The notes under the pieces: model-generated
What the model saw: only the letters and a program-made list of their open reading frames with translations
Told to the model about the DNA's origin: nothing
Databases searched by the model: none
Source: Patescibacteria group bacterium
GTDB lineage: Bacteria > Patescibacteriota > Minisyncoccia > Phycocordibacterales > PALSA-1337
Reading direction: 5' to 3'
Assembly (NCBI GenBank): GCA_018970245.1
Contig: JAGWWT010000002.1
Location: 24,067 to 88,066 of the forward strand
DNA: 64,000 bases
In this document: positions 17,268 to 58,212 of the stretch, one piece after another
Numbering within the stretch: the first letter of the stretch is position 1
How the letters are laid out: each line of letters starts with the position of its first letter
Made by a program: the position numbers and the translations under genes

Positions 17268-17534
17268 ATGAACAGATAGCCATATCACTCGACTAGAAGG
17301 TCGGCCGACAACTAGCTTCGGCTGGGGGTACGGCTACTCTCTTTACTGGATTTTTTGCAATTGAGAAAATTCCTCTATTTTTCAACGAAGTTAAGCCGCC
17401 ATTTTCCGATATTTTCTCATTTGCAAAAAATCAGATTTCGAATATGCCAACGCCCGCCGGCTTCTCGCCAACCACATCTAGCCGCCAGCTTCTCGCCGCC
17501 CGTTTCTCAGTCGCCCGACCTTCCAATTCCATCT

Positions 17535-39045: not shown

Positions 39046-39774
39046 TCACAGGTTAGCGAGCTTTATGGCTGCGAAGAGGACGGCAGCGCCGACGAGCGTC
39101 ATGGCTGTCGTCAGGAATTTCGGATGGGCATGATGGCTCTCTGGCACGAGATCGCTGGCGCCGATGTACATGAAGAATCCGGCGAATAGCGAGAGGATGA
39201 TAGCGAGAGACTGCTCTGGCAGCCTGAAGAAAAGGGTCGAGGCAGCGCCAAGGACCGGAGCCATGGCGTCGACGATCAGCCATCTGAAGGCGAAACGGCT
39301 CTGGCCTTGGTTCTTTAGTATGAGATTGACAGTATTGATCCCGTCAGAGAAGTCATGGACGAGTACGGCGACCGCGACGACCGCGCCGACAGCGGCAGAT
39401 AGCTGGAAAGCCAATCCGATAGCCAAGCCGTCGAGGAAGCTGTGGAATGAGAGGCTCCCTGCTCCAAGGACGCCCCGCTCGATGTGCGCTGCTTCATGCT
39501 CGCCGTCTTCATGGGCATGGGAATGGAGGAATATCACTCTGTCGAGGATGAGATAGAAGAGGAATCCGGCGGCGGTTATCGCGGTCACAGTGGACAGGCT
39601 GTAGAAATTCGAGCCGAGCCCGATAGATTCCGGCAAGAGATCGAAGAAAGCCACCCCGATCACTGCCCCAGCCGAGAATCCGAGGATGAGGTGCAGCTTG
39701 TCCTTGAATCGCAGCGCCAAAAGGCCGCCGGCGAAGGTGGAGACGAATGTTGCTAGAGCGATGATTATGACCAT
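39046..39774 (-). CDS. ZIP-family metal transporter (ZupT-like)
   Basis: HSFLDGLAIGLAF and HDFSDGI motifs, His-rich loop HSHAHEDGEHE; start at internal ATG. Confidence 0.8.
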   Translation of the reverse strand: MVIIIALATFVSTFAGGLLALRFKDKLHLILGFSAGAVIGVAFFDLLPESIGLGSNFYSLSTVTAITAAGFLFYLILDRVIFLHSHAHEDGEHEAAHIERGVLGAGSLSFHSFLDGLAIGLAFQLSAAVGAVVAVAVLVHDFSDGINTVNLILKNQGQSRFAFRWLIVDAMAPVLGAASTLFFRLPEQSLAIILSLFAGFFMYIGASDLVPESHHAHPKFLTTAMTLVGAAVLFAAIKLANL

Positions 39775-40079
39775 GTGTCTATTCTGATCTTGTGAGCTAT
39801 CTGGTAAGCCGGCTTTTTTCGGCCTAAGTTCAGCTGCCGTACCAGACCGCATTCTACCAATTTATCTACCGATCGGTAAATCATAGCCCGACTGCACTTT
39901 TCTTTGAGCTTCTCCGTGATCTCTGCGAGCGAATATGGACTAGCATCGTCATTCAATGCTTTGAGGAGTTCTATCCGCCTGCTCGATGCTTTTAGGTGGC
40001 AAGACCACAATTCTACGCGGAACTCTGCATCGGGACCTTCTAGGAGGTGATCCTCGAAATCATCGTTAATTTTGGGCAT
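39765..40079 (-). CDS. Fur-family-like transcriptional regulator, DNA-binding domain only
   Basis: LKASSRRIELLKAL...PYSLAEITEKL...AMIYRSVDKLVECGLV matches the Fur N-terminal wHTH; no C-terminal metal-binding domain; start at internal ATG (MPKINDD), because upstream codons are encoded by the repeat array. Confidence 0.55.
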   Translation of the reverse strand: MPKINDDFEDHLLEGPDAEFRVELWSCHLKASSRRIELLKALNDDASPYSLAEITEKLKEKCSRAMIYRSVDKLVECGLVRQLNLGRKKPAYQIAHKIRIDTWS

Positions 40080-40083
40080 GGCA

Positions 40084-40169
40084 GATAATGGATCGGATTG
40101 ATGGCTGATAATTGGGCGATTATGAACGATAATTGGACGATTATGGACGATATTTAGGCGCTTATGAAC
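40084..40169. repeat. about 4 tandem copies of a 21-nt palindrome-containing unit (GATAATTGGNCGATTATGRAC), Fur-box-like
   Basis: GATAATTGGGCGATTATGAAC / GATAATTGGACGATTATGGAC / GATATTTAGGCGCTTATGAAC plus one degenerate copy, immediately upstream of the Fur-like gene. Confidence 0.7.
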
Positions 40170-40216
40170 GGTCACTGAACGGTCACAGTGTCCCCTCTCG
40201 ATATATGCCCTTTCTA

Positions 40217-40300
40217 CAGATGAGACGAATTCTCATTTGATCCCCAAAATACGGCTTATATTCGTCGAGTAAATGAGAAAAAGTCTCATCTGCGGTTTTT
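40217..40300 (+). terminator. nested inverted repeat (CAGATGAGAC...TCTCATTT...AAATGAGA...GTCTCATCTG) followed by a T-tract
   Basis: 10-bp outer and 8-bp inner complementary arms with about 30-nt internal loop, then GCGGTTTTTCGTGTTTTCG. Confidence 0.4.
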
Positions 40301-40418
40301 CGTGTTTTCGAATGTATCTACCGCCAGCACTAACAACCGAGCAGACCACCGGCACGAACGACGATTTCGCGGCTGAATGATATCAAGATCGGCTCACAAA
40401 ACCGGCTCGCAAGACCGC

Positions 40419-41486
40419 TCACAAAACCGGCTCGCCTTCCCTCTGCCTCTGCACGACCGCCATCTCCAGCGTGTACTTGTCATAGCCGTGGAAGAAGAGG
40501 GTCAGATTGACGCCGAATAGGATGATGTGCGGCCAGACCGCCTCTCCGAAGAATAGGATCGAAAGCGTCAGGAAGAAAGTGAAGAAGATGGCCGCGAACC
40601 GTATCTCGAACCCGAAGGCGAAGCACAGACCCAGAAGGGATTCGATGATGAACGCGCCCAAGACCAAGAATAGCGGCGTGAAGTGGAAATAGTTCGTCAG
40701 ATGATAGTCATTGACCGTCGCCAGCGCCAGATCGCTGTGCAGGAACTTGGCGTAGAACGAGGCGAAGAACAGAGCCAGACCGAAGAGGACGCGCAAGATC
40801 AAGAAGCTGTACTTTTCGAGCCGTTCAGCCACGGATGCGAACAAGCCCTCGATCTTGGCCAAAGCCGGAATGGCTTTGTCGAACGACCACATACCGCCTC
40901 CGAGTATGAGGAATAGAATGAGCTCGCCTAGATAATTGACGTAAGTGAGCATATACAGATGGTATTGGTATATGAGGACCGCGAACAGGCATATCCCAAG
41001 GAATGAGATGAGCCTGGTCAGGAATCCCAGACAGACCAATGCCCCGGCTACGAGCAGGATCAGGCCGAGAGCGTGCGCCGCGGCCGGCGGGAATGAGGCG
41101 TCCATCGGCAGTTCCGGCCCAAAGAAGGAGCTGAAATAGCCGGATGCCATGATAGACAGGCCTAAAGTCGCGCGGCCAATGAGCGGCGCGTACTTCTTCA
41201 GCTTCATAAGGAATGGGTCGCAAAGCCGCTCGAAGAACGGCGAGACTGATGCGGTCATCACGAGGAGCATGGCCACGGCCGTGATCGTTCCCCATATGAG
41301 GAACAGCTTCTCGTGGGCAGGCACTGCTGTGAATGGATCGGGCGATGACGCGGCCAAGCCCTGAGATATCTGCTGAGGCGTGAGGACATAGACCTCGTGA
41401 GCCGAAGCCGCCATGGGGGCCGCGAGAGCCCCGATATAGAGACCGATCGTTAGGAAGGCGGCTATCGTTGCGAGCCTTTTTGACAT
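40419..41486 (-). CDS. DoxX-like polytopic membrane protein
   Basis: 355 aa, 8 or more TM, DoxX-like hydrophobic repeats. Confidence 0.5.
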   Translation of the reverse strand: MSKRLATIAAFLTIGLYIGALAAPMAASAHEVYVLTPQQISQGLAASSPDPFTAVPAHEKLFLIWGTITAVAMLLVMTASVSPFFERLCDPFLMKLKKYAPLIGRATLGLSIMASGYFSSFFGPELPMDASFPPAAAHALGLILLVAGALVCLGFLTRLISFLGICLFAVLIYQYHLYMLTYVNYLGELILFLILGGGMWSFDKAIPALAKIEGLFASVAERLEKYSFLILRVLFGLALFFASFYAKFLHSDLALATVNDYHLTNYFHFTPLFLVLGAFIIESLLGLCFAFGFEIRFAAIFFTFFLTLSILFFGEAVWPHIILFGVNLTLFFHGYDKYTLEMAVVQRQREGEPVL

Positions 41487-45861: not shown

Positions 45862-45966
45862 GGCTTTGTTTTATTCTGTTCTTATGGCTTGATAATGGCC
45901 TGATCATATGAATCTACGATCGAAACGGACAAGTGGTTCAAATCAAACGGTTCAAAAACAGAGGCA

Positions 45967-52287: not shown

Positions 52288-53055
52288 TCAGCGCACAAAG
52301 CGGTATTTTGCGTGTCTTGGAGATCCTTCGCGGACTAGACGTCCTTGCCTTACGAGATCGACGAGATATCTGGTCGCTGTGGCGTCAGATACCCTCGTGA
52401 GCTTCTGGACTTCATCGTTGGTGACGATTTGGTGTTGTTGGGCATGTTCGATAACTATTTCCAGTTTCTTTTGCCTGTGTTCTTGGATTTTCTGGCGTTC
52501 TTTGGTTCTGATTTCGTTCAGATGTTGCAGATCAGGGTTTGTTGCAGGAGTTTGTGATGTTGGCGCTGGATTGCTCGGCGCAGGCGCAGGCGTTGCCGGT
52601 GTTTGCGGTGATGGTTGGGTCGCTTGTGTCGGTGTTGGCGTCTCCGGTGTTGGAGCCTGTGGAGGTTGCGCCGGCGATTGCGGCTGTGGCGCTAGCGTAG
52701 TCTGTGCCGCCGGCGCAGACGCAGAAGATTCAGGAGCTTGTTGAGGAGATTCGGTCGGAGTTTCTGATTGAGCCGGCTCAGTTGGTGACGCGTCCGTGGT
52801 TTCAGGCGTTTGTGGTTCACCGCTGGTATCGTCGATCGGTTGAGGCTCGGATCCTGGCGCAGGTTCTGGCTCTTTCGGCGGTTCATCAGGAGCCGCCGGA
52901 CTCGGGTTCGGTTCTAGACTTGGCTGCGCAGGCGTTGATGGCTCTGGAGCAGGTCCGGCGGGCACGGCAGATGCCGGAGCTGGCGCGAGCGTAGAGGTAT
53001 CTATATTTTGGTCCTTGTTTTCTTCCATATTTTGCTTGTAATTCCAACGGCTCAT
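52288..53055 (-). CDS. Pro-rich low-complexity protein with C-terminal winged HTH
   Basis: N-terminal about 170 aa P/A/T/E/Q-rich; C-terminal IVTNDEVQKLTRVSDATATRYLVDLVRQGRLVREG wHTH; likely true start is the internal ATG 27 nt downstream (MEENKDQ). Confidence 0.5.
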   Translation of the reverse strand: MSRWNYKQNMEENKDQNIDTSTLAPAPASAVPAGPAPEPSTPAQPSLEPNPSPAAPDEPPKEPEPAPGSEPQPIDDTSGEPQTPETTDASPTEPAQSETPTESPQQAPESSASAPAAQTTLAPQPQSPAQPPQAPTPETPTPTQATQPSPQTPATPAPAPSNPAPTSQTPATNPDLQHLNEIRTKERQKIQEHRQKKLEIVIEHAQQHQIVTNDEVQKLTRVSDATATRYLVDLVRQGRLVREGSPRHAKYRFVR

Positions 53056-53078
53056 CGGCGTTGAGCCGTTAAAACCCT
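53044..53078 (-). promoter_or_regulatory. conserved palindromic element, copy 1 (AACGGCTCA-N7-TGAGCCGTT)
   Basis: about 35-nt block shared with 58874-58908; overlaps the annotated start of 52288..53055. Confidence 0.55.
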
Positions 53079-53296
53079 TGTATTTTTTAGTGGAATGCGA
53101 TTAACTGTCAGCCTCTATTATACTGAACATTATGCCTCTGCAAAATACCTTGATCATTCAATGCCCCTACATTATTCTACGAATATGAACAGGCCGTTTA
53201 ATGCAATCTGCTGAGCCACAGACCATTGACAATTGACTGATTATCATTTATATTATTTTCAGTGCTCGTTAACAACAGAATAGGAGAAATCACAAA

Positions 53297-53842
53297 ATGA
53301 AAACAAAGGACAGACAGGCTTTCAACGCCTTGAATGGGAAAGGCTCGGAGCGCGCTGATCGTTTGCATCGATTTCTCATGGAATCGGGCTTTGATTTCGC
53401 GACGGGTGTGCCGTGCGGAGTGTTGAAACATATCATAGCCAATTTGGTTGGCGATAAACGGGTATGTCATGTGCCCGCCAATCGCGAATCGGAAGCTATA
53501 GGACTTGCTGCCGGAGCATATCTGGCCGGTAAGAAACCGCTGGTGTATATGCAGAATTCGGGATTATTCGCAGCGTCTAACGACATCGCTTCATTGCTAG
53601 TGCCGTATGGAATACCGGCGTTAATGCTGATATCTTACCGCGGTTGCGAAGGAGAAGACGCCGTTCAACATCTGACTACCGGCCATGCGACGGAAAATCT
53701 GATCCGATCATTCAATCTGCCATATGAAGTGTTTGACGGCCGGAAACGCGACATAAACGCCTGCGTTTCCGTCTTGATCGGTCTGATGACCGAAAGAGAG
53801 CTTCCGGCGATACTTCTGCTGAAGAGAGGATGGTATGTATGA
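53297..53842 (+). CDS. TPP-dependent sulfopyruvate/phosphonopyruvate decarboxylase-like, alpha subunit (ComD-like)
   Basis: 181 aa; TPP-enzyme N-terminal (pyrimidine-binding) domain pattern GFDFATGVPCGVL...ANRESEAIGLAAGAYLAGKKP. Confidence 0.7.
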   Translation: MKTKDRQAFNALNGKGSERADRLHRFLMESGFDFATGVPCGVLKHIIANLVGDKRVCHVPANRESEAIGLAAGAYLAGKKPLVYMQNSGLFAASNDIASLLVPYGIPALMLISYRGCEGEDAVQHLTTGHATENLIRSFNLPYEVFDGRKRDINACVSVLIGLMTERELPAILLLKRGWYV

Positions 53843-54411
53843 AAAGAGCCGACGTCATTGAGATCGTAGCGACTTCAACACAATGCGACGACGTCATCGT
53901 TGCGACTACCGGGTTGATATCCAGAGAACTATTCGAAAGATTCGACTCCGAGAGGAACGTGTATATACCGGGTTCAATGGGATTGGTTTCATCCGTGGGA
54001 TTAGGCATAGCCTTGTGTGACACAAATCACAGGGTGGTGATAATAGACGGAGATGCTAGCCTACTCATGAACTTGGGTTCAATGGTAACTATTGGATCAA
54101 GGAGACCGAAAAATCTCCTCCATATAGTGTTGGACAACGGCGCATACGCGTCGTGCAGCGAGGAATCATCCATGTCCGGAACGGCAAACTTCGGATTATT
54201 GGCTAAAGATGTAGGCTACAAATATACCGCTACCGTTGGCGACAGAGAAGCATTAAAACGTGCTATACTGTCGTTCAAGGGCGGCCCGGGATTCTTGTCT
54301 GCCATAACGGAACTTGGAGGACGGCGAGATTTTCGCCGGCCGCAAAAGCTCAAAGAGATCAAAAGACGGTTCATGAGATTCATGAGCCGGCAACCAAAAG
54401 GAAAAATATGA
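53830..54411 (+). CDS. TPP-dependent sulfopyruvate/phosphonopyruvate decarboxylase-like, beta subunit (ComE-like)
   Basis: TPP-binding motif GSMGLVSSVGLGIAL...IDGDASLLMNLGSMVT...LDNGAY; 13-nt overlap with alpha gene. Confidence 0.7.
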   Translation: MVCMKRADVIEIVATSTQCDDVIVATTGLISRELFERFDSERNVYIPGSMGLVSSVGLGIALCDTNHRVVIIDGDASLLMNLGSMVTIGSRRPKNLLHIVLDNGAYASCSEESSMSGTANFGLLAKDVGYKYTATVGDREALKRAILSFKGGPGFLSAITELGGRRDFRRPQKLKEIKRRFMRFMSRQPKGKI

Positions 54412-55250
54412 TGTTTCAAGGAAAAAAAGTATTCAACGCATCGTTCGACGCCTATGCCGACGATTATCACGAAGTCCGGCCGGGATATCCCGACCAGATG
54501 TTCAACGATATCAAGGCTCAATGCGGCATAACCGGTGACTCTAAGCTCCTGGAGATAGGGGCCGGCAGCGGCATAGCCACGAAAAAGCTGGCCGAGTTCG
54601 GTTGCAAGATAACCGCGCTCGAGCCAGGATCGAATCTGGCACGCATCGCCAGAAAACACACCTCCAAACTGCAAAATGTGGAGATAATCGAGGACACATT
54701 CGAATCCTTTCAACCGAAAGGAAAATTCGACACCGTCTTGGCGTTCACGGCGTTTCATTGGGTTCCCGGAAACGACAAATACGGAAGAGCTATGGAACTG
54801 CTCAATGATTCCGGGAGCTTGGTGATAGTATGGAACAGCTTTCTACAGGATCATTCCGCCGTGACCGCCGAAGTCAACGAGGCCTACGACAGATTGTTGC
54901 CGACGGTCTACGGTAAGATCGGGGACTCTTCGGAAATCAACAAGAGGGTCTTGGCCAAGCTGACTTCAAGGGAAAGGGAAATATTTCTCAACGATCGCCT
55001 GTATCCGGTATTCTTGCGGAAATACACCGCCAGATACAACTACGACGACAAGACCTATCCTCAACTGCTCAATACGTTCCCGAAGATAGTCGGAACCGAG
55101 GATTCCGTGCGCAGCTCGTTTCTCCGAGAAGTGTCAGGGATCATCAAGCGCCACGAGATGATCACGGTACCGGTCCTCACGACAGTCGTGATCTGCAGAC
55201 GCAGAGAGTCATTCTTGCGAATGACCGTAAATGAAGACAGAGAGGAGTAA
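54408..55250 (+). CDS. class I SAM-dependent methyltransferase
   Basis: motif I LLEIGAGSGIATKKLAEFGCKITALEP; 4-nt overlap upstream. Confidence 0.7.
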   Translation: MMFQGKKVFNASFDAYADDYHEVRPGYPDQMFNDIKAQCGITGDSKLLEIGAGSGIATKKLAEFGCKITALEPGSNLARIARKHTSKLQNVEIIEDTFESFQPKGKFDTVLAFTAFHWVPGNDKYGRAMELLNDSGSLVIVWNSFLQDHSAVTAEVNEAYDRLLPTVYGKIGDSSEINKRVLAKLTSREREIFLNDRLYPVFLRKYTARYNYDDKTYPQLLNTFPKIVGTEDSVRSSFLREVSGIIKRHEMITVPVLTTVVICRRRESFLRMTVNEDREE

Positions 55251-55252
55251 GT

Positions 55253-56344
55253 ATGATAGACACAGAAAGGCTATTGCAGCTTTCGCGGCAATACAGAACG
55301 CCGCTGGAAGATACGATGTTTATATCGCTCAACATGAGCGGTGTGAGCTTCAAATGCGATTACAACAGGATGCGGACAGCCGTAAGGCTGGAAAATCATG
55401 AGCTGTTCGGATATGCGGAGGAACGAAATGAACTTGAATATTATTTCGCCCTGCCGATAAACGACTCTAGCCCGTTCCGGATATCCGGCGACGTTCTGTC
55501 GTTAGGAGACACGGCGATAGGCTCCACCGTCGGAGCGACGGAAGATATCTGCGATTCGCACTATCCGAGAAGGCGAGGCACTTCGCTGAATCTTAACCCC
55601 AATTCTCGGACATCTTGCCGCGGTTGCGAATTCTGCTACACCGCGTATCAAGTGCCGTGCGACAGGAAAAAACTGAGGGATCGCCGAGATCTCGAGGAAT
55701 TTTTCGAGGGGTGGATGAAAGGACGATGCTTATCGGATCTGTCCGGTCTCATCCAAGTATCAGTCGTGACAGGATGTTACGACGGCGGCAAGGAAGTATG
55801 CCGTTTCATCTTGGAACTAAGGAGCGTATTGAGCCGATACGGATTCAACGGTTCGATATTCTATCTTGGTTCTCAGTTGACGACGGAAGACGAATTGAGC
55901 CGCTTGGAAGCGGCCAAGCCAGTCAGTGTATGTTATTCGCTGGAGACGTTCGAGAGACGCGAGTTGTTGCGAGATAAAAAGCGCTTACTCAGCCTTAATA
56001 GAGCCGTTGAGCTCATGGATTTCTCCAGGGAGTCAGGATACGAGACCAGCTTTTCCTATGTCATTGGCTTGGAGCCTTTGCACATAGTGGGCAAGCACTT
56101 CTCTTATCTGAAAGATCACATCAACAAATTCCCCATCATCAACACTCTGCAGATACACAAATATCACAGAGCCGAATTGGCCGATCCGAGCGTTGACGGA
56201 CCGGAATATTACTTGAGAGCGAGACGGCTTCTTGAGCAGATATTCTCGGATACGCCCATGAGGCCGCTGGTTTGGGAGAATTATCGCAGCTTATGGTTTC
56301 TGACCTTCAACAACGAACCGCTATATGGTTGGAGAACGCCTTAG
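55253..56344 (+). CDS. radical-SAM-like protein with non-canonical CX2CX2C cluster motif
   Basis: SRTSCRGCEFCYTAY (Cys triad with aromatic before the third Cys) about 120 aa from the N-terminus; 363 aa. Confidence 0.4.
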   Translation: MIDTERLLQLSRQYRTPLEDTMFISLNMSGVSFKCDYNRMRTAVRLENHELFGYAEERNELEYYFALPINDSSPFRISGDVLSLGDTAIGSTVGATEDICDSHYPRRRGTSLNLNPNSRTSCRGCEFCYTAYQVPCDRKKLRDRRDLEEFFEGWMKGRCLSDLSGLIQVSVVTGCYDGGKEVCRFILELRSVLSRYGFNGSIFYLGSQLTTEDELSRLEAAKPVSVCYSLETFERRELLRDKKRLLSLNRAVELMDFSRESGYETSFSYVIGLEPLHIVGKHFSYLKDHINKFPIINTLQIHKYHRAELADPSVDGPEYYLRARRLLEQIFSDTPMRPLVWENYRSLWFLTFNNEPLYGWRTP

Positions 56345-56364
56345 ACCTAAGCTTGGACACTAAC

Positions 56365-56397
56365 AGCCATGCGACATCCGTCCGCATGGCTTTTTTA
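56365..56397 (+). terminator. rho-independent terminator between convergent units
   Basis: AGCCATGCG-N9-CGCATGGCT then TTTTTT. Confidence 0.75.
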
Positions 56398-56409
56398 TGT
56401 TCTAATTAT

Positions 56410-56871
56410 CTAAACATCTATCTCCTCGCCATCCGGAAATATTTCTGATATTTTTTCAGACGTTTCGCGCAATTGTCCGTCGAACAGCAGGTAATTCCCC
56501 AATTGCGTAAATGGCACCCATGCGTACGACCTCACTTCGCCTTTCTTCGGTCTGACATCGTATGTACCGACCAAGCGAAACCCGAAAAAGTATCTTTCCG
56601 AACCGTCGTATTTTTTGCCGTCGCGATTCATTGTGATCACCTTGAATCTGAAACGCACGGGTACATGACTCCGTCCGACTAACTCGAGGGAACTTTTTTC
56701 TATGCCGAGTTCCTCGCGCACTTCTCGATACACGGCATCTTCCAATGTTTCTCCCTGCTCGACTCCGCCGCCCGGAACGGCGAAATACTTATTTTCAAAA
56801 GACTCCAGATTGACAAGGAGAAATTCCTTATTACTGTTCATTATGAGAGCTGATACGCCTTTTCTGTACAT
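56410..56871 (-). CDS. NUDIX hydrolase
   Basis: Nudix box GGGVEQGETLEDAVYREVREELGI. Confidence 0.8.
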   Translation of the reverse strand: MYRKGVSALIMNSNKEFLLVNLESFENKYFAVPGGGVEQGETLEDAVYREVREELGIEKSSLELVGRSHVPVRFRFKVITMNRDGKKYDGSERYFFGFRLVGTYDVRPKKGEVRSYAWVPFTQLGNYLLFDGQLRETSEKISEIFPDGEEIDV

Positions 56872-56901
56872 GGCGATAGTATAACAAAGTAGTAATTACA
56901 G

Positions 56902-57654
56902 TTATATTCTCCTCCTCAACACCGTAATGTTCCGCCCGCCTGGATAAGGTTTCTTGGCCGCATCGAAATCGCTGAAGTCGGAGACGTGTTCCCATTTACT
57001 GGTAGCCTCCGCTTTGGCGATAAAATCATTGATTCTATATAATTTCCTTGTCTCGGTATGTTCTATCACTTTTTTCTCGCCGTTCTCCTCTATCTCCAGT
57101 ATTATCCTTGCGTCAGATAACCCATTTCGCTCATCTATCCATTTAGGATCATAAGTGGTGATCACCTTTACACCGTCTCGCTCCATCTCCCATGTCTGGA
57201 TTCCGAAATCTTCCGGAAAGAAAAGTACGGCTCCGTCCAGAAAGTACAGACCTCCGCCCCTTACAGAGTGTGCCACCGAATCCATATGGCTCTGCAATTC
57301 ATGGTCATCAGTCACATAGAACGAGCCCAGGAAAAGCAAAGCGCAGTCGGCTTGTTTATTCGTGCGGAAGTTTCTTAAATCTCCTCGGATGATTTCGGCC
57401 TTGAGTCCCAAATCTTCTATAGTCTTTGTTGAATATTCGATCATCTCCTCATTCTGTTCCAAACCGACATAGTCGTAGCCTCGCCGGCACAACTCGCTCA
57501 TGTGCGGACTATTACCGGACGCTATCTCCAAGACTGTCTTTACCGGTATCAGCGATTCATTCTTTATGATTTGCTCGAGGAAATCTACTTCCTTCGCGAT
57601 ATCTCGGAATGAAAAAGCTATATCGTAATATTTTGGATTATCGTAGACATCCAT
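56902..57654 (-). CDS. class I SAM-dependent methyltransferase (TylM1/small-molecule N- or O-MTase-like)
   Basis: YYDIAF...VLEIASGNSPH motif I, acidic motif II. Confidence 0.7.
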   Translation of the reverse strand: MDVYDNPKYYDIAFSFRDIAKEVDFLEQIIKNESLIPVKTVLEIASGNSPHMSELCRRGYDYVGLEQNEEMIEYSTKTIEDLGLKAEIIRGDLRNFRTNKQADCALLFLGSFYVTDDHELQSHMDSVAHSVRGGGLYFLDGAVLFFPEDFGIQTWEMERDGVKVITTYDPKWIDERNGLSDARIILEIEENGEKKVIEHTETRKLYRINDFIAKAEATSKWEHVSDFSDFDAAKKPYPGGRNITVLRRRI

Positions 57655-57675
57655 AGGGTCGTAATATTTACAGCT

Positions 57676-58203
57676 CTATACTAAATACTCTCTAATTTCC
57701 TCAAAATCCTCGTATGAGTGATCGTCGCCTTTGCACACAATAAGATCCAGTGACCCAAATTTTCCCTCAGCTTGCTCTCTCCTTATATCTTCCGCCGAAG
57801 CCACGGGATCATGATCATTCTGAATGAGCGTCGTCGGCACGGAATAATCAGATGACCAAGCATCAATATCAAAACGGTTCTTCCTAGCCCATTCCGGAGG
57901 CAAACCTAGAAATACGCACCTGCCTATGCGTTCCGCCGCAATCGTTTTCGAATGAATGGAAAGCATGAACAATACGGTACCTATGGACTTGGCAAGAATA
58001 GCAATATCTCCACTGAAAGATCTCGCCGTATTTGTCAATTTCTTCAGTTCAATCTCCATATCTATCAACTCGCCGCCACTTGCCCAGTGGTCATAATATT
58101 GGACGGAAATTGATTTGAAATCGTCGGCAAAATAATCGCGCGCTTTTTCCGCCCATTCCTTATTTGACGCGCCGTTGCCTGGAATGATCATGAGGTTGCT
58201 CAT
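57676..58203 (-). CDS. alpha/beta-hydrolase (YdeN/RBBP9-like serine hydrolase)
   Basis: 175 aa; IIPGNGAS start and AKSIG nucleophile-elbow-like motif. Confidence 0.55.
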   Translation of the reverse strand: MSNLMIIPGNGASNKEWAEKARDYFADDFKSISVQYYDHWASGGELIDMEIELKKLTNTARSFSGDIAILAKSIGTVLFMLSIHSKTIAAERIGRCVFLGLPPEWARKNRFDIDAWSSDYSVPTTLIQNDHDPVASAEDIRREQAEGKFGSLDLIVCKGDDHSYEDFEEIREYLV

Positions 58204-58212
58204 AATTTCGTG

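Follow-up and report, generated by a model that had tools for sequence, protein, structure and literature searches.

A ZIP-linked Fur-family regulator reduced to its DNA-binding domain in a Patescibacteria genome, with distant candidate operator boxes and a repeat array at a candidate promoter

Several kinds of operator have been described for regulators of the Fur family. The classical Fur box of E. coli (GATAATGATAATCATTATC) contains hexamers of the form NAT(A/T)AT, BosR binds the direct repeat TAAATTAAAT, and B. japonicum Fur binds TGCATC, present in three copies in the irr promoter (PMC3037356); for the Magnetospirillum Fur protein (MgFur), the feoAB1 operator TTAATCGCAACTCATTCGCAATTGC has been footprinted, and Lys15, Tyr56, and Arg57 are its DNA contacts (PMC4506495). 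In this work, we analyzed 64 kb of DNA from a Patescibacteria group bacterium (GenBank assembly GCA_018970245.1, contig JAGWWT010000002.1; this whole stretch, the only one of the genome inspected, is called the window), in which a gene for a Fur-family protein consisting of the DNA-binding domain only overlaps the start of a gene for a ZIP/ZupT-type metal transporter and is preceded by an array of 21-nt tandem repeats. We know of no described metal-regulatory sites for Patescibacteria, and a literature search on truncated Fur proteins and on Zur in this group found nothing directly relevant. Our analysis revealed that the locus is a damaged Zur-like (Fur-family) regulator-ZIP module, a module common in Patescibacteria, and the reading that we regard as the most likely one, with about an even chance of being right as judged from sequence comparison, is that of a deletion remnant accompanied by lineage-specific promoter-proximal repeats.

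The two genes at the center of the locus are as follows.

39765-40079, minus strand: truncated Fur-family regulator gene (DNA-binding domain only, 104 aa, ATG start), identified with Pfam, AlphaFold, Foldseek, and an alignment of relatives

39046-39774, minus strand: ZIP/ZupT-type metal transporter gene (242 aa; Pfam Zip, 73.7 bits; NCBIfam ZupT was the top match but below its cut-off)

The regulator matched Pfam FUR (PF01475) with 27.0 bits against a cut-off of 23.1, and since its residues 29 to 97 covered profile positions 4 to 76 out of 121, the match indicated a DNA-binding domain only. The AlphaFold model (pLDDT, a confidence score, of 86.7) showed the Fur topology of helices a1 to a4 and a beta-hairpin wing, with helices at residues 18-26, 33-44, 51-58, and 64-77 and strands at residues 80-83 and 91-94, and the top 30 Foldseek matches in the PDB were all Fur, PerR, Zur, or Nur, with about 80 residues aligned at a root mean square deviation (rmsd) of 1.5 to 2.0 Å. 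The same fold is seen in E. coli Fur 1-82 (PDB 2fu4; 80 columns, rmsd 1.7 Å, target-normalized TM-score of 0.81), but 2fu4 is a laboratory truncation, whereas that in the window is natural and genomic, with putative DNA binding. Residues K30 (in an LKAS motif), Y68, and R69 are kept, R69 being invariant and Y68 nearly so in an alignment of 23 sequences, and they correspond, by alignment only, to the three DNA contacts of MgFur. The C-terminal dimerization domain is absent, as the protein ends about 10 residues past the wing; a family hidden Markov model (HMM) matched it over positions 7 to 90 out of 146, compared with 4 to 145 out of 146 in full-length relatives, and it contains none of the HHHH, CxxC, and HSLEFFGxCxxC motifs that make up the regulatory metal and structural Zn(Cys)4 sites. 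The initial annotation of this DNA had described a Fur-type winged helix-turn-helix domain of about 105 aa without the metal-binding and dimerization domain, and Pfam, AlphaFold, Foldseek, and the alignment all agree with that description, the length being 104 aa. In the model, the remaining DNA-binding domain looks sound. By HMM score, the protein is nevertheless among the most divergent members of the group: with leave-one-out scoring, its DNA-binding domain reached 68.5 bits compared with 80.7 to 114.5 bits for the full-length members, and two other domain-only proteins scored 66.8 and 54.7 bits. The G+C content at third codon positions (GC3) of the regulator gene is 0.51; a low GC3 was considered as a sign of decay and rejected, because the full-length orthologue in a related locus (L007) shows the same offset from its own ZIP gene.

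Relatives were then sought through the neighboring gene. For the regulator, no relative exceeded 38% identity when 1.84 billion representative proteins were searched exhaustively with HMMER, and a word-indexed search for close homologues returned only the regulator itself, whereas homologues of the ZIP protein are 60 to 78% identical across many Patescibacteria; therefore, ZIP homologues were used to fetch 80 loci from species-representative genomes, plus several metagenomic contigs. About 20 of these related Patescibacteria loci have a Fur-family gene beside the ZIP gene, on the same strand or divergent, and all such genes encode full-length proteins (140 to 165 aa, with HHHH, CxxC, and HSLEFFGxCxxC), the exceptions being the window gene and that of locus L018. 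The best match was P0002 in L007, where the order DoxX-Fur-ZIP-NDH2 is the same as in the window. Three loci (L091, L092, and L088) have no Fur gene at this position, and in L091 and L092 the DoxX and ZIP genes lie 8 nt apart. For the full-length relatives P0002 and P0004, NCBIfam matches to PerR, Fur, and Zur were all far below cut-off (for Zur, 30 bits compared with 167), and it is the neighboring ZIP gene alone that suggests zinc for this regulator family.

Alignment of the window DNA to L007 and L090 placed a single gap of about 170 nt in the window gene, as follows.

39790-39791, minus strand: deletion junction, about 170 nt missing relative to L007/L090 (HHHH, both CxxC, and the dimerization domain), from the DNA alignment

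The window tracks both relatives to the codons past the wing (…AYQIAHK), and beyond the gap the match picks up again in the final bases ahead of the ZIP start codon; the DNA downstream of the junction aligned to the ancestral fur 3′ end, the spacer, and the ZIP start. On this alignment, the regulator lost its whole sensor and dimerization domain in one deletion of about 170 nt, and thus its tail IRIDTWS, its stop codon, and the 10-nt overlap with ZIP represent read-through of the old gene end and spacer. The overlap itself is as initially reported, with the ZIP ATG at 39774-39772 and the regulator stop codon at 39767-39765, but the translational coupling proposed for it is no evolved device, the arrangement being a by-product of the deletion. 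A second, independent Fur truncation was observed directly upstream of ZIP in L018 (positions 1436-1741; Nomurabacteria), where the protein has 102 aa and ends just past the first CxxC and a strong box (25.4 bits) is kept.

The upstream regions of the Fur genes of the relatives were found to share a 21-bp palindromic box with the consensus AATTGCAAATnATTTGCAATT and variants including TTGCGAATnATTCGCAA and TTGAGAATnATTCTCAA, which was present in all Fur-ZIP loci examined and of which we know of no published description. In the forms TTGCAAATnATTTGCAA or TTGAGAATnATTCTCAA, it differs from the classical E. coli Fur box, and it resembles the footprinted MgFur operator at feoAB1 (PMC4506495). The box is usually centered about 27 nt before a start codon that has no Shine-Dalgarno sequence, directly upstream of a −10 hexamer, and a second box lies 52 to 53 nt further upstream in L037, L028, L019, L008, and L034, the spacing being exactly 53 nt in the first four. 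When a matrix trained on the relatives only was run over the 64 kb, with significance taken from the maxima of 50 shuffles, the two best matches both fell upstream of the regulator and exceeded the shuffle maximum of 15.3 bits.

40218-40238: proximal Fur-family box (16.5 bits), core ATGAGAcgaatTCTCAT at 40220-40236, centered 149 nt upstream of the ATG

40271-40291: distal Fur-family box (19.0 bits), core ATGAGAaaaagTCTCAT at 40273-40289, 202 nt upstream of the ATG

An exact palindrome search identified the same boxes as two perfect ATGAGA-N5-TCTCAT palindromes exactly 53 nt apart. By their sequence, these palindromes, which do not appear in the initial annotation, are candidate clade-type operators retained in the window. 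The full-length Patescibacteria Fur-ZIP loci (L007, L090, L037, L008, and others) share with the window the gene order, the domain fold, and the 53-bp-spaced boxes; the window differs from them in having no sensor sites or dimerization domain, in having its boxes at 149 and 202 bp and not about 27 bp from the gene, and in the array that fills the gap. In L008, L034, and L014, whose Fur proteins are of the same N-terminal subtype, the proximal box lies 97 to 136 nt from the start codon. In the relatives, a −10 hexamer follows the proximal box at a distance of 4 nt; its counterpart in the window is degenerate (TAGAAA).

One more cluster of such matches was observed elsewhere in the window, at 17349-17430, where two convergent genes are separated by DNA with an inverted repeat of 19 nt (TTTTTGCAATTGAGAAAAT ... 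ATTTTCTCATTTGCAAAAA) and four clade-type Fur half-site matches (9.8 to 14.1 bits) fall within 80 nt, against a window average of 0.45 per kb. The inverted repeat is not followed by a T-run and hence is not terminator-like; it could be a small mobile element, or else another site at which a Fur-family protein acts.

The DNA between the proximal box and the regulator gene is occupied by the following repeats.

40107-40170: 21-nt tandem array, 3.0 copies of GATAATTGGGCGATTATGAAC (Tandem Repeats Finder score 93, 83% matches)

40165-40186: 11-nt perfect tandem duplication of TGAACGGTCAC (2 copies, 100% identity; Tandem Repeats Finder)

40084-40186: full phased array, about 10 units of 10 to 12 nt (a GATWAT hexamer plus a TGRAC spacer), read from the sequence

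The tandem 21-nt repeats noted initially are real, and the repeat pattern given for them, allowing up to 3 mismatches, had 3 matches compared with 0.00 expected (100 shuffles); their number, put at about four, has to be revised to three clean copies and one degenerate copy of 23 nt (GATAATGGATCGGATTGATGGCT, at 40084-40106), which starts 5 nt from the ATG. The element GGTCAC-TGAAC-GGTCAC is likewise present, as the 11-nt unit repeated twice at 40165-40186. The deeper period of the array, counted from the degenerate units nearest the gene through to the 11-nt doublet at the far end, is about 10.5 nt, that is, about one helical turn: A+T/G+C periodicity at 10.5 to 11 nt was exceeded by none of 1,000 shuffles, and autocorrelation peaked at lags of 11, 21, and 42. 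The hexamers GATAAT and GATTAT do fit the NAT(A/T)AT hexamer of the classical Fur box (PMC3037356), but GATAAT/ATTATC resemble the −10 elements of sigma-70 promoters equally well, and the classical hexamers are contiguous, while those of the array lie 10 to 11 bp apart with conserved G+C-rich spacers.

Such phasing would suit a factor other than the Fur-family protein, for example one of the OmpR/PhoB type binding direct repeats 10 to 11 bp apart, or curved, UP-element-like DNA that activates the proximal promoter. AT-rich tracts phased at 10.5 to 11 bp, spread between about −5 and −110 as counted from the ATG, are consistent with this, and in L007 genes of a two-component system are found close to the orthologous locus. 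However, no candidate regulator adjoins the locus in the window and no second array of this kind was found in the 64 kb, and we consider this explanation very unlikely.

Scored with the clade matrices, the array reached at most −6.7 bits for the full box and at most 0.7 bits for the half-site, compared with 9 to 15 bits for genuine half-sites. Thus, the claim that the repeats are the Fur/Zur-type operator of the regulator is not supported by the clade matrix, and the boxes of the clade type lie further upstream. The array was absent from all related loci examined (about 20 Fur-ZIP loci), one of the outcomes that the initial annotation had named as refuting its reading, and local alignments of the array to the leaders of relatives, including L008, L034, and L014, did not rise above shuffles. 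Scanning 241 million metagenome records for GATAATTGGNCGATTATG gave 33 matches, each to a single copy amid unrelated DNA and none in tandem, which is chance level, and in the 64-kb window neither an 11-nt-unit matrix nor a GATWAT-N5-GATWAT search found a second cluster. A structured RNA or riboswitch leader was rejected, as there was no credible Rfam match and the fold z-score was +1.0. Upstream of an unannotated gene of 134 aa near a heavy-metal P-type ATPase (45891-45917, minus strand), the 11-nt units ATGATCAGGCC and ATTATCAAGCC were observed; they were rejected as a second site of the array, the resemblance being loose and the match at chance level.

The nearest partial analogue is in L008, the closest relative with a full-length Fur, where two copies of a 15-nt repeat (ATATCCrkCCATAAA) carrying CATAAA hexamers end 5 nt before the ATG. 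This leader shares eight 6-mers with the array compared with 2.1 expected, more than 14 other loci (uncorrected P of about 0.012), an excess that is marginal after multiple-test correction. Since L008 has both repeats and a full-length Fur, repeats at this position are not tied to the loss of the sensor.

We also examined how the array relates to promoter and start codon. Many genes of the window lack a Shine-Dalgarno sequence and have a TAnnnT hexamer about 6 nt ahead of the start codon, the distance at which such hexamers are most frequent (exactly 6 nt in 8 of 45 genes), and leaderless transcripts are therefore probably common in this genome. The regulator gene has a hexamer of this type.

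40085-40090, minus strand: −10-like hexamer CATTAT, a candidate leaderless promoter, identical with the proximal array hexamer and ending 5 nt before the ATG

Read along the coding strand, the array hexamers are CATAAT, AATTAT, AAATAT, and CATTAT, with six −10-like hexamers compared with about 1.3 expected.

Alternatively, the repeats could be coding, with translation starting at GTG 40175, perhaps by re-initiation after a mini-ORF (open reading frame), which would add a His-containing N-terminal extension of VHNRPII repeats. The 21-nt period keeps the frame, which is open from GTG 40175 and translates as MTVHKRLNIVHNRPIIVHNRPIISHQ..., the peptide given initially; in addition, a Shine-Dalgarno-like GAGAGGGGA was observed 5 nt before GTG 40186 (40172-40200, minus strand), which opens the four-codon mini-ORF GTG ACC GTT CAG TGA, whose TGA overlaps the in-frame GTG 40175. 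Nonetheless, the N-terminus read from ATG 40079, MPKINDDFED, matches the MPRLSxxYxED of L014 and L034, the putative extension has a GC3 of 0.375 compared with 0.51 in the gene, the Shine-Dalgarno-like element and GTG 40175 are 16 nt apart, the regulator has 104 aa in the public gene call as well, and no relative has such an extension. With CATTAT placed before the ATG, these features argue that the array is almost certainly not coding, as the initial annotation had held, and we regard translation of the repeats as highly improbable.

On the reading that we favor, of a deletion remnant with lineage-specific repeats, the alignment shows that about 170 nt of the regulator gene are gone and that the dimerization domain, the two CxxC motifs, and the His-rich regulatory site went with them. 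A DNA-binding domain of 104 aa is left, and its C-terminal residues and stop codon are read from the old gene end, the spacer, and the ZIP start. The 21-bp palindromes of the clade still stand in two copies, 53 bp apart, at 149 and 202 bp upstream of the ATG. We infer that the 21-nt repeats are lineage-specific, non-coding tandem duplications that arose in a spacer accumulating duplications. The array would now be promoter-adjacent DNA with AT-rich, −10-like hexamers phased at about 10.5 bp, of which the last, CATTAT, occupies the position of the putative leaderless −10 elements of this genome. If active, the array most likely supplies or tunes a proximal promoter for the truncated regulator and ZIP, one that would be largely independent of the old boxes, now stranded far upstream, and the sensor-less protein would at best bind ATGAGA-type half-sites weakly, without a metal response.

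Several observations weigh against this reading. The ORF of 104 codons is intact, with K30, Y68, and R69 retained. All four half-sites of the two boxes are the lineage-specific ATGAGA, and this uniformity suggests that a binding protein constrains the boxes now or did so recently. The phasing of the array along the helix is far from random, and, as counted on the sequence, its hexamers changed at about 4 of 48 positions compared with about 9 of 40 in the spacers, which would fit selection on the hexamers. It is possible that the boxes are used by a second, full-length Fur paralogue elsewhere in the genome; there is none in the 64-kb window. Finally, a domain-only Fur-like pair (P0007 and P0147) is conserved at 53% identity, and hence such proteins are maintainable.

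Several of these observations also speak for a different explanation, in which the sensor-less domain has its operator array in the phased GATWAT hexamers. Monomers would line up head to tail over the promoter, all on the same face of the DNA, and the regulator-ZIP transcript would be autoregulated independently of metal. About 10 units at about 10.5 bp, whose hexamers are better conserved than the spacers, abut and overlap the candidate −10, and the protein is predicted to be well folded. Winged-helix effector domains of the PhoB/OmpR type bind head to tail to direct repeats 10 to 11 bp apart, and this geometry matches what such an operator would need (a monomer per turn, on one face), though in a different protein family. 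On the other side, isolated Fur N-terminal domains are poor DNA binders, the array is unlike the clade box or half-site while two good ancestral boxes survive upstream, it is absent from the relatives and the metagenome scan and has no other copy in the window, and its nearest partial analogue, in L008, accompanies a full-length Fur. Fur-family binders of direct repeats do exist, namely, BosR and B. japonicum Fur (PMC3037356), with a Fur-type domain on tandem direct repeats as this explanation requires; however, they are full-length dimers with structural zinc, and they bind contiguous pentamers or hexamers and not a phased array of 100 bp. Domain-only Fur-like proteins can be conserved, as noted, and two such loci have lone half-sites. 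On balance, we consider an operator array for the truncated protein unlikely.

The array might instead be inert, having arisen neutrally by replication slippage and been kept in a control region that is decaying, with the regulator ORF a young, pseudogene-like remnant; this differs from the favored deletion-remnant reading solely in denying the array a role in the promoter. The 64 kb contain about 13 tandem arrays, and 3 of them sit in the 339-nt spacer upstream of the regulator, namely, the 21-nt and 11-nt repeats and the following duplication.

40384-40435: 25-nt tandem duplication, GCGAGCCGGTTTTGTGA twice, at the DoxX 3′ end and including its stop codon (Tandem Repeats Finder, 2.0 copies, 92%)

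The spacer is either prone to slippage or tolerant of its products. An inert array would also be consistent with relatives that range from a full-length Fur to none, with the degenerate −10 after the proximal box, and with a DNA-binding domain that scores below all full-length family members. The 361 nt upstream of the regulator gene are identical in four assemblies of the same organism, so the array is not hypervariable; since all four represent one organism, the identity is uninformative on variation. The identical regulator protein is found on three public contigs (from the Patescibacteria metagenome-assembled genomes GCA_028865675.1 and GCA_028866085.1) and in one sequencing run. Against an inert array stand the intact ORF, the concerted ATGAGA half-sites, and the strict helical phasing, and we find this explanation rather improbable.

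Domain-only Fur-like proteins were observed at other loci as well. P0007 (104 aa; L004, 54-368) and P0147 (110 aa; L126, 199-531) both consist of the domain only and are 53% identical over 96 residues, and this indicates that the domain-only form has been maintained across two diverged organisms; P0007 adjoins a ribonucleotide reductase gene and not ZIP. In L005 (912-976; P0016) and L126 (16-88; P0147), the box is reduced to two lone inverted half-sites, 54 and 62 nt apart, respectively, unlike the full-length loci, which have complete palindromes. Those of L005 are at the promoter, with three rGAAAT words 10 to 11 nt apart between them, and those of L126 precede the start codon by about 110 nt or more. 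A profile of the three domain-only proteins recovered nothing but singletons and P0147, and no large, conserved family of this type emerged from it. That domain-only Fur derivatives are working regulators in Patescibacteria, which arose repeatedly (in the window, as P0016, as P0007/P0147, and in L018) and act as monomers with remodeled operators, seems doubtful to us. Under that idea, the lone half-sites in L005 and L126 and the phased array of about 100 bp over a leaderless promoter in the window would be such operators, and the ZIP operon would be subject to metal-independent, concentration-dependent autoregulation.

The genes around the locus are arranged on the minus strand in the order DoxX-family gene, 339-nt spacer, regulator, ZIP/ZupT-type gene, NDH-2 type gene, and P-type ATPase gene.

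40419-41486, minus strand: DoxX-family membrane protein gene (Pfam DoxX), a conserved upstream neighbor in the same order in L007

37728-39017, minus strand: NDH-2 type oxidoreductase gene (Pfam Pyr_redox_2 and NDH2_C), a conserved downstream neighbor, in an order common to L007, L090, and L091

35805-37703, minus strand: P-type ATPase gene

Within the regulator coding sequence, a promoter-like TTTACC-18 nt-TAGAAT, whose −10 hexamer is preceded by a TG motif, was observed at 39851-39880 (minus strand), about 75 nt upstream of the ZIP start codon, and with it ZIP expression could be independent of the regulator's promoter. At the end of the window (53000-64000), the genes have a G+C content of 0.39 to 0.51 and a GC3 of 0.33 to 0.66, compared with a G+C content of 0.51 to 0.63 elsewhere in the window, and this region may be an island or of different origin.

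In conclusion, the eye-catching repeats are not the operator of the family, and the unusual architecture of the locus stems from one deletion. The comparison yields a candidate operator motif for the clade, AATTGCAAATnATTTGCAATT, often as two boxes 53 bp apart over a leaderless promoter. Should the truncated protein prove active, it would be an example of a Fur-family regulator that functions with neither metal sensor nor dimer interface, and the locus would offer a natural system for studying how a winged-helix monomer finds its target.

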